Assembly (NCBI GenBank): GCA_965116795.1
Contig: OZ220716.1
Location: 1,482,503 to 1,546,502 of the forward strand
Direction of reading: 5' to 3'
Length of the DNA: 64,000 nucleotides
DNA from: Gammaproteobacteria bacterium
GTDB taxonomy: Bacteria > Pseudomonadota > Gammaproteobacteria > JAJFKG01
The position numbers and the translations under genes are program-made. The notes beneath the pieces are model-generated. The model had not been told where the DNA came from and did no database searches. It was given only the letters and a program-made list of their open reading frames with translations. Below are positions 664-2,563 of the stretch, piece after piece (the first letter of the stretch is position 1; each line of letters opens with the position of its first letter).

Positions 664-2563
664 ATGACAAGATATATTGGAGTTGACTTGCATACGAATA
701 GTTTAACAGCATGTTATTTAGGTGATGGTGAAGAAATGCGTTTTAAAACGTATGGACTTACTGGTGCAGCGTTGCGATGTTTTAAGCAAAGCTTACAAGC
801 AAATGATGAGCTTGCTGTTGAGACGACAGGTAATACGGAATTTTTCATTGAACAGATAGAGGATTCAGTAGCACGTGTTGTAGTGGTGAATCCACGGGAA
901 TTTAGAGTGATCCGAGACTCAGTAAAAAAGACAGATAGGCACGATGCAAAGGCATTGGCCTACTTTCTGAGTAAAGATATGTTGCCAGAGGCGCGCAGGA
1001 AATCGAAAACTTATCAACAAGTAGGTGGTTTGTCGCAAACGCGTGATAAGTTTGTCAAATCCAGAACCTTTTTTATGAATAAAGTCCACGGGATTTTGAA
1101 TGGATGTGGTATCAAGTTAAAGAAAGAAAAACTGGGTACAGCAAAAGGATTAGAGCAAGTTCTGGGTGCGCGCCACGAAGCGCTGTATTACTAGCGGTTG
1201 AAAGTACCGCCGGTGAAGTAGAGCCCACTACACACCGTACTGAGTCTTGGGCGAGCTGTGGTAACACAGTTGGTTAAGCGTAGATAGGGAGATATTAGGC
1301 CGTAGGCGAAAGCCGAAGTGATTGAGCCTCGAAAATTTGCTTGTCGGAGTGGTCGATGGTTTGCCTTAGCCAGAAGACAACACCACGCATGACGAAATGG
1401 GAAGCCATGCGTAGCACTCCCGGGGTCCGAGAGCATGGCATGATATTAAAGTAATACAGTGAACGTGGGAGGTCCTGATTATTCGCAAAGGAAAGCGTAT
1501 TAGACAACAAGCTTAACAGCAAGGCGTCTGAAAAGATAATCAGGAAGTCAGAGGAGGCATAGTATTGAAGAAGATGGGTAATGCCATTGGAGAGAAGGCC
1601 TCCAGGCAAGCAACACCTCGAGAGGGACACGTGATGAGAACAACAGATTCTCAACTAACAACGGCAACGCAACTTGAGAGGATAGCTTGGTTGTCCGCGC
1701 AAGATAAGGTAAAGATATTTAGGTGTTTAATGCACCATGTCGATGCTGAGTCCTTGCGGGCATGTTACTCCCTGTTGGATGGAAGAAAGCAACAGGAGTA
1801 GATGGGATGACAAAGGAGCAATATGATAAATGAGTTTATCATCTACTTTTTTTTGAAGTTCACAATCAGTGAAACGGAGTTTGTCGTGAGCCCATTGCCT
1901 TAATAGGGCACGATGTGGTTCTAACGAGGAGCCGGGGCACAAGTGAACTAAGAGCAAGATAATGTGACACCATCATAGGAAACCAGATGGAAACAGTGAA
2001 AACGAACTTTGCTCTAAGGTACGCGAGGAACCGGCTTACTCACTTATGAGTTAGACGAAGTATCGAGTTTTGAGATTAAGATGCTAGTTACTCAAATCCG
2101 TTCGTTAAGCGTCTCCATTAAAGGGCTGGACAAGAAACTTGTTGAGATAGGCAGTCGCCTGAAAGGACACAAGAATTTGACAAGTATTAAAGGTATTGGT
2201 GAACGCTCGGCGGCTATATTGCTGTCAGCGATCGGAGACATTAATGATTTTGCAGACGAAGGAAAGCTATCGGCTTACTTTGGTATTGTTCCACGTGTAT
2301 CTAATTCGAATGAGACTCAACGTAGTGGTCGGATCACTAAACGAGGCACAAAAATAGGTCGCACGACGCTGGTGCAGTGCACATTAGTTGCGATCCGATA
2401 TAGTGATTATTTACGGCGATTTTACGAGAAGATTAAACGAAAAAAAGGAAGTGGTAAGGCAATTATTGCAACAGCTAGGAAATTACTGGGGATCATTTAT
2501 AACACCTTGAAGAATGATTGGGTGTTTGAGGATTTTGGAAATTTTGTGCTAGTTAGTCATTAA
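664..2563 (+). CDS. IS110-family recombinase/transposase, split by a group II intron (exons 664..1166 and 2044..2563)
   Basis: RuvC-like DEDD motifs (IGVDLH, AVETTG, KTDRHDA). The C-terminal Tnp domain has SIKGIG and VPRVSNS. Removing 1167..2043 restores the frame (CTG GGT TAT GAG = L-G-Y-E). Confidence 0.9.
1167..2043 (+). mobile_element. Group II intron, non-autonomous (RT ORF internally deleted), copy 1
   Basis: 34-nt domain V GAGCCCATTGCCTTAATAGGGCACGATGTGGTTC (1888-1921) with AGC triad. Domain VI GAGGAGCCGG..CCGGCTT-A-CTC has a bulged A, and the 3' end is AC. Frameshifted RT N-terminus remnant (LERIAWLS..LMHH..LDGRK/ATGVDGMTKEQY). Appears identical to 16081-16957. Confidence 0.9.
1631..1833 (+). 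pseudogene. Remnant N-terminus of group II intron reverse transcriptase/maturase
   Basis: Similar to the RT0 region (KATGVDGMTKEQY appears after a 1-nt frameshift near 1790). No RT1-7 or YADD motif before domain V. Confidence 0.75.

Follow-up and report, generated by a model that had tools for sequence, protein, structure and literature searches.

A recently mobile ORF-less class E group II intron in a gammaproteobacterial genome, probably mobilized in trans by a prophage-borne relative

Bacterial group II introns without an ORF nearly always co-occur with related introns that encode an RT, and any that were overlooked would need an unusual domain V, according to the available part of the review by Zimmerly and Semper (2015, PMC4424553). 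The closest described parallels are TeI3 and TeI4 of Thermosynechococcus elongatus (Mohr et al. 2010, PMC2882425). As presented in the accessible sections of that report, a single ancestral deletion in domain IV has left N- and C-terminal ORF remnants with a frameshift, ORF-less families differ in their EBS sequences, identical copies occupy EBS-matched sites that include IS elements, and a related RT-encoding intron resides in the same genome. The window studied here, a 64,000-nt stretch of a gammaproteobacterial contig, carries an element with the corresponding TeI3-type features, namely a domain IV deletion with ORF remnants, EBS-matched copies and a related RT intron in the genome. The element, an ORF-less class E group II intron, is real and was recently mobile, and it is of a known type.

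Copy 1 (window positions 1168-2044, forward strand, as are all window features below) begins with GCGCG, ends with ACU and interrupts an IS110-family transposase gene, whose N-terminal part forms the 5′ exon (664-1167) and whose C-terminal part forms the 3′ exon (2045-2563), both assigned by NF033542 and homologues. This copy lies in sense, and its splicing would restore the transposase message. Copy 2 (16082-16958) is identical and has a MITE-like repeat as its target, where it sits in the left terminal repeat; the target begins with the three bases 16079-16081 and continues at 16959-17242. The two identical 877-bp copies of the original prediction are real: 1167-2043 and 16081-16957 differ at 0 positions over 877 bp, the full identical span being 880 bp (1165-2044 and 16079-16958), and the flanks diverge no more than two bases from the element ends. 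Both copies match the Rfam group-II-D1D4-6 model (RF02005), which locates domain I, with 140.9 bits.

The host genome is a single contig (C1) of 2.45 Mb that is 97.7% complete. It holds four 100% identical mini-introns, at 1345424-1346300 (reverse strand), 1435149-1436025, 1483670-1484546 and 1498584-1499460, which occupy three unrelated target types. The original prediction had suggested looking in the genome for a full-length parent and further copies, and both are there. A single-copy sister mini-intron (C1 1257341-1258216, 876 nt, 91.6% identical) brings the number of minis to five; it has the canonical GTGCG start, its own EBS set and a domain V with a single change in its basal stem. The remaining copy on the reverse strand lies antisense in the 3′ part of a long ORF, and thus cannot be spliced from that message; the first 822 residues of this ORF gave no match to a Pfam family. 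Five of six elements lie on the strand expected from skew for a lagging-strand template, a number too small to serve as evidence, and a scan for promoters and terminators returned hits at chance level only.

Sequencing reads exclude the assembly artefact that had been considered a possible source of the identical copies. Element-specific contigs in run X2 have a depth of 262-270, compared with 70 in the flanks, which corresponds to roughly 3.8 copies. A contig from run X1 spans window positions 600-2568 with no difference from the assembly, and a contig from run X6 crosses the element while carrying the flanks of another copy; one of the runs compared may be the source of the assembly. No copy of the 877-nt intron in a different target was found among 37 metagenome hits, 60 relatives and 399 other genomes scored. 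Contigs from eight runs revealed no empty allele at the IS110 site or at the site of the antisense copy, in a check that covered two of the four sites and used contigs, which drop rare variants; present-day mobility therefore stays presumptive.

A full-length parent intron of 1,960 nt (C1 1138700-1140659) is 91.2% identical to the mini-intron. Its 434-aa RT/maturase ORF has a YCDD motif, matches TIGR04416 with 314.5 bits (cut-off 300) and ends approximately 30 residues past that match, too soon to accommodate an endonuclease domain. This protein is a candidate for the maturase that, in the original prediction, was encoded elsewhere and would act in trans. The genome contains no other close RT, the next one being 27% identical. 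Its two further RTs were rejected as drivers, L001 being 27% identical and placed outside the class D/E clade, and L003 reaching only 119 bits with TIGR04416. The parent follows a tail tape-measure gene in sense orientation, at a distance of 16 bases from the stop codon, and its neighbourhood (L131:483-17280; C1 ~1128500-1145300) is a prophage head-tail operon as judged from PHROGs. In run X4, parent-specific contigs have depths of 1966-4128 versus 730-1030 for single-copy flanks, a weak hint of prophage replication or extra copies.

In an RT tree of 20 rows, which left out the class C reference and four relatives for which no long frame was recovered, the parent groups with three class E references (support 96/92), with class D as sister and apart from classes F, g1, B and ML. 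Class labels follow Table 3 of Miura et al. (2022, PMC8919778), as far as that source was available. D and E are likewise sister classes in the accessible part of Toro and Martinez-Abarca (2013, PMC3552965). The window intron also carries three class E/F marks, namely a terminal-loop position of alpha′, an additional bulge next to EBS1 and a 5-nt domain V loop, which are present in class F as well according to the available text of PMC3753933 and are not decisive alone. The same subfamily is common on Piscirickettsia salmonis plasmids (L113, hits H1-H40), with 54% RT identity and the same atypical domain V. A further genome of 1.7 Mb (G256, L093-L112) has 43 matches to an intron of the subfamily, mostly 5′-truncated, and 19 protein matches with no intact RT. 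One locus there (L092, 672 nt) was considered as a second mini-intron and rejected as a plain deletion, being without domains II and III.

Both mini types lack the same 1.09 kb relative to the parent and share an identical deletion junction and hairpin, and thus a single event removed the ORF. The RT remnant opens with ATG 1634 and meets a stop codon (1799-1801) after 55 codons, beyond which another frame continues to about codon 65, in agreement with the predicted frameshifted stub of ~65 codons. The deletion scar is a perfect hairpin (1823-1842) whose 10-base filler, in both mini types, is the reverse complement of the bases just downstream, and this suggests a fold-back template switch. The sister has the same junction combined with different EBS1, EBS2 and EBS3 sequences that match its own target, and thus the lineage moved after ORF loss. 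The minis diverge from the parent by 9-10%, in a nearly star-like manner (48, 38 and 31 sites for the three groupings). Of 24 predicted base pairs in which the mini-intron and the parent differ, 17 are still paired, six of them through double changes; in the comparison with the sister, 15 of 25 are. The start of domain IV differs from that of the parent at 2 of 30 positions, and domain V is identical throughout (0 of 34).

We consider it highly probable that 1168-2044 is an ORF-less class E (IIB-like) intron that arose through one old 1.09-kb deletion and likely retrohomes by using, in trans, the RT/maturase of the prophage parent. The boundaries, the anatomy, the four identical copies, the target complementarity, the shared deletion and the intact RT gene are supported directly; from them we infer splicing, protein binding, reverse splicing, retrohoming and trans mobility. 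The precursor RNA would fold and the parent's protein would bind the retained start of domain IV, after which the intron would splice, either as a lariat through A2038 or by the hydrolytic route that class E introns take in vitro. The resulting RNP would reverse-splice into DNA between T(−1) and +1, guided by EBS2, EBS1 and EBS3, and the RT, which apparently has no endonuclease domain, would copy the inserted intron from primers provided by the replication fork. The sense position in the tail operon leads us to guess that the parent's protein is made on prophage induction.

The copies might alternatively be stranded derivatives of an earlier spread, for which the RT is now gone or resides on an unassembled element, with the prophage relative incapable of moving them. 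The parent's protein may no longer recognize minis that have diverged from it by 9-10% in so nearly star-like a pattern, and the true driver could be lost or absent from the assembly. Some T. elongatus proteins are specific for their own intron, as the available portion of PMC2882425 describes, and no insertion polymorphism appeared in the runs examined. We judge this account improbable. The four copies remain 100% identical, one of them postdates or edges a duplication that is itself 99.93% identical, the start of domain IV shows few changes from the parent and domain V none, and a one-contig genome of 97.7% completeness contains no other close RT.

The original prediction placed the 5′ splice site in front of UGCG, with the G of the adjoining GTGCG in the exon. 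The latter part stands, because an 877-nt length keeps the IS110 frame: an 877-nt excision yields a 340-aa transposase that is ungapped across the junction against all 40 of the 40 homologues aligned, and the excisions of 878 and 879 nt that were tried bring a stop at residue 168-170. A GTGCG start at 1166 was rejected on these grounds. The frame fixes the length at 877 and is silent on register, as excision of 1166-2042 likewise yields 340 aa; the empty sister sites offered as a second line of evidence also establish the length and leave the register free. In each of the four copies a T stands directly ahead of GCGCG and another directly behind CAC, and therefore 1167-2043 and 1168-2044 give the same ligated exons. 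The two registers are sequence-equivalent, as the original prediction had recognized, so RT-PCR across the exon junction is blind to the difference, unlike mapping of the lariat or the intron ends. The register one base to the right is nevertheless the better supported one. Most likely, the intron comprises 1168-2044 (GCGCG...ACU), with T1167 as exon position −1 and G1166 also in the exon, and the real deviation at its 5′ end would be a single U2-to-C change of GUGCG.

Homology to relatives argues for this register. At the 5′ boundary, C|GTGCGCCACG is found in the parent and T|GTGCGCCACG in the sister, and both introns end in ACTCACT. All 37 metagenome relatives start with GT, in a search whose pattern left these bases free; GCGCG is found in 0 of the 37 and is absent from 28 other tabulated 5′ ends. 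The GCGCG and ACU ends, each one change from GUGYG and AY, are positionally homologous to the GUGCG and AAU of relatives. In a metagenome contig (L062, 460-500), a tandem junction reading ...ACCAGCT|GTGCG joins an intron 3′ end directly to the next GTGCG.

Tertiary and exon-recognition pairings can be read in the same way. Of 28 relatives that start with GTGCG, 26 have five or six of the last 6 exon bases before G1 paired with positions 3-8 of the 8-base EBS1 loop, the exceptions being the tandem junction and L087. Delta, the second base of that loop, is U in all of the 31 rows. With 1168-2044 as the intron, EBS1 is GCCUUA and its G stands opposite T1167 in a G-T wobble; T at −1 is common in the family (31/37), and the same wobble occurs in L070, a GUGCG relative. 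EBS2 pairs at −14 to −9 in both the parent (CAAAAA with UUUUUG) and the minis only in this register. EBS3, as defined in PMC8643678, fits the +1 base in 10 of 11 elements, including C-G, U-A and A-U pairs, versus one Watson-Crick pair and one wobble of 11 in the UGCG register; this tally comes from 15 elements, four of which have no parsed EBS3, and omits the sister, which fits when inspected by hand (G with C). The gamma-gamma′ pair forms in 14 of 14 scorable elements, compared with 0 of 14 in the UGCG register. In L028, gamma and the last base have both changed in a compensatory C-G swap. Among 32 3′ ends, 31 carry T as base A+6, and the single end with G there is the one where gamma is C. 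Many relatives in these tallies are close kin and hence non-independent, and the pair swaps are informative in themselves. A spacing of six bases between branch A and the splice site has been mapped in IIF introns (Nagy et al. 2013, PMC3753933, in the part available).

Moving both splice sites one base upstream, to 1167...AC 2043, with a 4-base EBS1 (CCUU), is permitted by the DNA alone, because of the flanking T residues in all four copies. The intron would then end in the usual AY, and no G-T wobble would be needed at the three independent targets, each of which has T rather than the better-pairing C at −1 opposite the G of EBS1. However, the +1 T would stand opposite the C of EBS3 in all four copies, gamma A would face C, branch A would sit at −6, and neither EBS2 nor EBS1 would remain in the register seen in the parent and in 26 of the 28 relatives. 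The 91% identical parent has C at the position in question and still ends in ACU, and T at −1 is a family habit. The motifs invoked for the UGCG start, CCTT (1364-1367) and TTGCT (1337-1341), are present, but CCTT pairs with TGGG at only three of four positions. The register-sensitive tests (EBS1, EBS2, EBS3, gamma, branch A and homology) thus favour 1168-2044, and a UGCG start, which would have surprised specialists, is very unlikely.

With 1168-2044 as the intron, GCGCG is common to all four copies, and so the U2-to-C change predates their spread. The change is apparently tolerated, although its rarity among relatives is a reason to think that it may impair the ribozyme. Our literature search for GCGCG or GCGYG starts found a single paper, whose available part reports GCGCG for Travisia mitochondrial introns (PMC8924214).

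The predicted RNA has six domains and a catalytic domain V. Domain I (1173-1468; fold z −4.0) is closed by a basal stem of CCACG (1173-1177) with 1464-1468, and contains alpha (1224-1227), which on reading the sequence pairs with alpha′ (1398-1401) in a terminal loop. It also carries EBS2 (UUUGCU, 1336-1341), the EBS1 loop (1361-1368, with delta at U1362 and EBS1 at 1363-1368) and EBS3 (C1428; G in the sister and U in the parent, covarying with exon +1). Domain II (1474-1544) is followed by J2/3 (AGA, 1550-1552), in which A1550 is gamma, the partner of the last base, U2044. Domain III spans 1553-1603, and domain IV, with the RT remnant and deletion scar, spans 1605-1885. Domain V (1888-1921) has the AGC triad, a 2-nt AC bulge, a 5-nt UAAUA loop and an extra bulged U. 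Domain VI (1926-2041) has 116 nt and a bulged branch A2038 at −7, six bases 5′ of the 3′ splice site. Relative to shuffled sequences, domains I-IV fold with a z score of −4.0 and domains V-VI with −4.85, and the claim that domains V and VI are intact is upheld. The bulged branch A and gamma-gamma′ pair expected of a group II intron are present. Exon recognition is of the IIB type, through EBS1, EBS2 and EBS3 with IBS1, IBS2 and +1, respectively, with an EBS3 mismatch in one of the four copies. IBS2 (−14 to −9; 1154-1159 in copy 1 and 16068-16073 in copy 2) pairs with EBS2 at 6/6 positions in both, and IBS1 (−6 to −1) pairs at 4/6 positions in copy 1 (1162-1167) and 5/6 in copy 2 (16076-16081).

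Two features of the 3′ domains set the element apart. A covariance search with intron_gpII (RF00029), a check that had been proposed, gave no match to the window intron at E values up to 10; among 14 class E loci scanned, the model detects domains V-VI in three and misses the others, including this one. The structured ~95-nt loop noted in domain VI is present, but a tie to ORF loss does not hold, as the full-length parent has the extension as well. Domain VI measures 116-117 nt in this genome versus 33-42 nt in 27 other ends of the subfamily, whose 3′ ends also include GCU, AAU, UAU, UGU and CCG. The domain VI motif was found in this genome only among 401 genomes, in no viral contigs and, for plasmids, only in Acaryochloris; within the sequences searched it is rare. 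We found no paper on an extended class E domain VI, and older surveys may already cover it, together with ACU ends and ORF-less class E introns.

Target sites show the complementarity expected from the EBS sequences to differing degrees. EBS2, EBS1 and EBS3 together pair at 12 of 13 positions at two sites, a fit reached by 4e-6 of sampled genome positions. The two remaining sites have 10 of 13 positions paired, at levels that 6e-4 and 2.8e-3 of the sample attain. The IS110 site is a weak match, with EBS1 paired at 4/6 positions and EBS3 mismatched. The MITE-like repeat is about 290 bp long without the intron and has ~19-bp terminal inverted repeats; the genome contains eight long BLAST matches and 26 end-motif matches to it, clustered at ~1.06-1.55 Mb. 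Two of the four intron copies share one insertion base in the left end of this repeat, and two sister repeat sites with an identical target core are empty. Window positions 14636-16081, an ankyrin gene plus flank immediately upstream of copy 2, are duplicated at C1 1436948-1438393 (1,446 bp, 99.93% identical), where the site is empty, although the duplication may end near the site. Multiplication at the DNA level, through gene conversion or duplication of host repeats rather than through RNA, would account for the two copies that share an insertion point within a single repeat family, in a region with recent duplications, but it is most improbable and largely refuted for two of the four copies, as it leaves the IS110 and antisense copies, with unrelated yet EBS-complementary flanks, unexplained, and as the flanks of the repeat-borne copies are only ~88% alike upstream and differ 10 bases downstream, around introns that are 100% identical.

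Other genes in the window include two eukaryote-like ones, encoding a 1543-aa protein with WD40, SH3 and protein kinase regions (2674-7305) and a 666-aa protein with MLKL-N-like, kinase and Sel1 regions (7504-9504). Ankyrin proteins are encoded at 12870-14489 and 14927-15967. These eukaryote-like and ankyrin proteins suggest a host-associated bacterium. A nucleotidyltransferase and HepT-like ribonuclease pair (10586-11259), which follows a PD-(D/E)XK transposase-like gene, is likely an MNT-HEPN toxin-antitoxin module.

The significance of the locus is modest, because ORF-less introns beside related RT introns are a described rule in the available part of PMC4424553. It offers a natural way of asking whether mobility depends on U2 of GUGYG. 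It is also a class E case in which the only candidate driver is carried by a prophage, so that the trans model can be tested easily. The low detection rate of RF00029 (3 of 14 class E loci) exposes a blind spot, of the kind against which Zimmerly and Semper (PMC4424553) caution for ORF-less introns with an unusual domain V. A broader picture, possible but doubtful, is that a long-lived protein-less class E lineage rides on a prophage tail-gene maturase, that induction triggers homing into transposon ends and IS genes, and that, with GCGCG starts, a 116-nt domain VI and a domain V missed by Rfam, ORF-less introns are undercounted. The remaining oddities, namely the GCGCG start, the 116-nt domain VI, the RF00029-missed domain V and the prophage-borne candidate driver, are minor.

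Among known systems, the UGCG claim would have placed this intron with those that have shifted 5′ splice sites, such as fungal IIB1 rRNA introns and C.te.I1. According to the available part of PMC4424553, their splice site lies 1-33 nt upstream of GUGYG, their EBS1 pairing is altered, and their EBS2 and branch motifs have been lost. In contrast, EBS1, EBS2, EBS3, gamma and branch A of the window intron are all in the canonical register. It resembles class E introns, as characterized in the accessible text of Nagy et al. (2013, PMC3753933), in RT phylogeny, the alpha′ tip, the EBS1 bulge and the 5-nt loop, and the parent RT, like theirs, apparently has no endonuclease domain. Its six-base spacing from branch to splice site is like that of the sister-class IIF introns in the same source. 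It differs from class E introns, as given there, in having GCGCG rather than GUGYG and ACU rather than AY, and in its domain V, which has one additional bulged U and escapes RF00029. A class E intron on Acaryochloris marina pREB3 (NC_009928), with 44% RT identity, has a domain VI that agrees in length and in its inner motifs (GUGACAC, then a hairpin, then GAAACAG-GAA-AC-AA), but is full-length, with canonical GTGCG...GAC ends and a standard GAAA-type domain V. With regard to T. elongatus, as described in the available portion of Mohr et al., trans activity has been demonstrated for TeI3/TeI4, whereas for the minis it is our inference, and 17 ORF-less introns are present there compared with five minis here. 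TeI4 proteins carry an endonuclease domain, and the class E lineage of the window apparently has none. Furthermore, unlike TeI4, the single candidate driver in this genome sits in a prophage tail operon.
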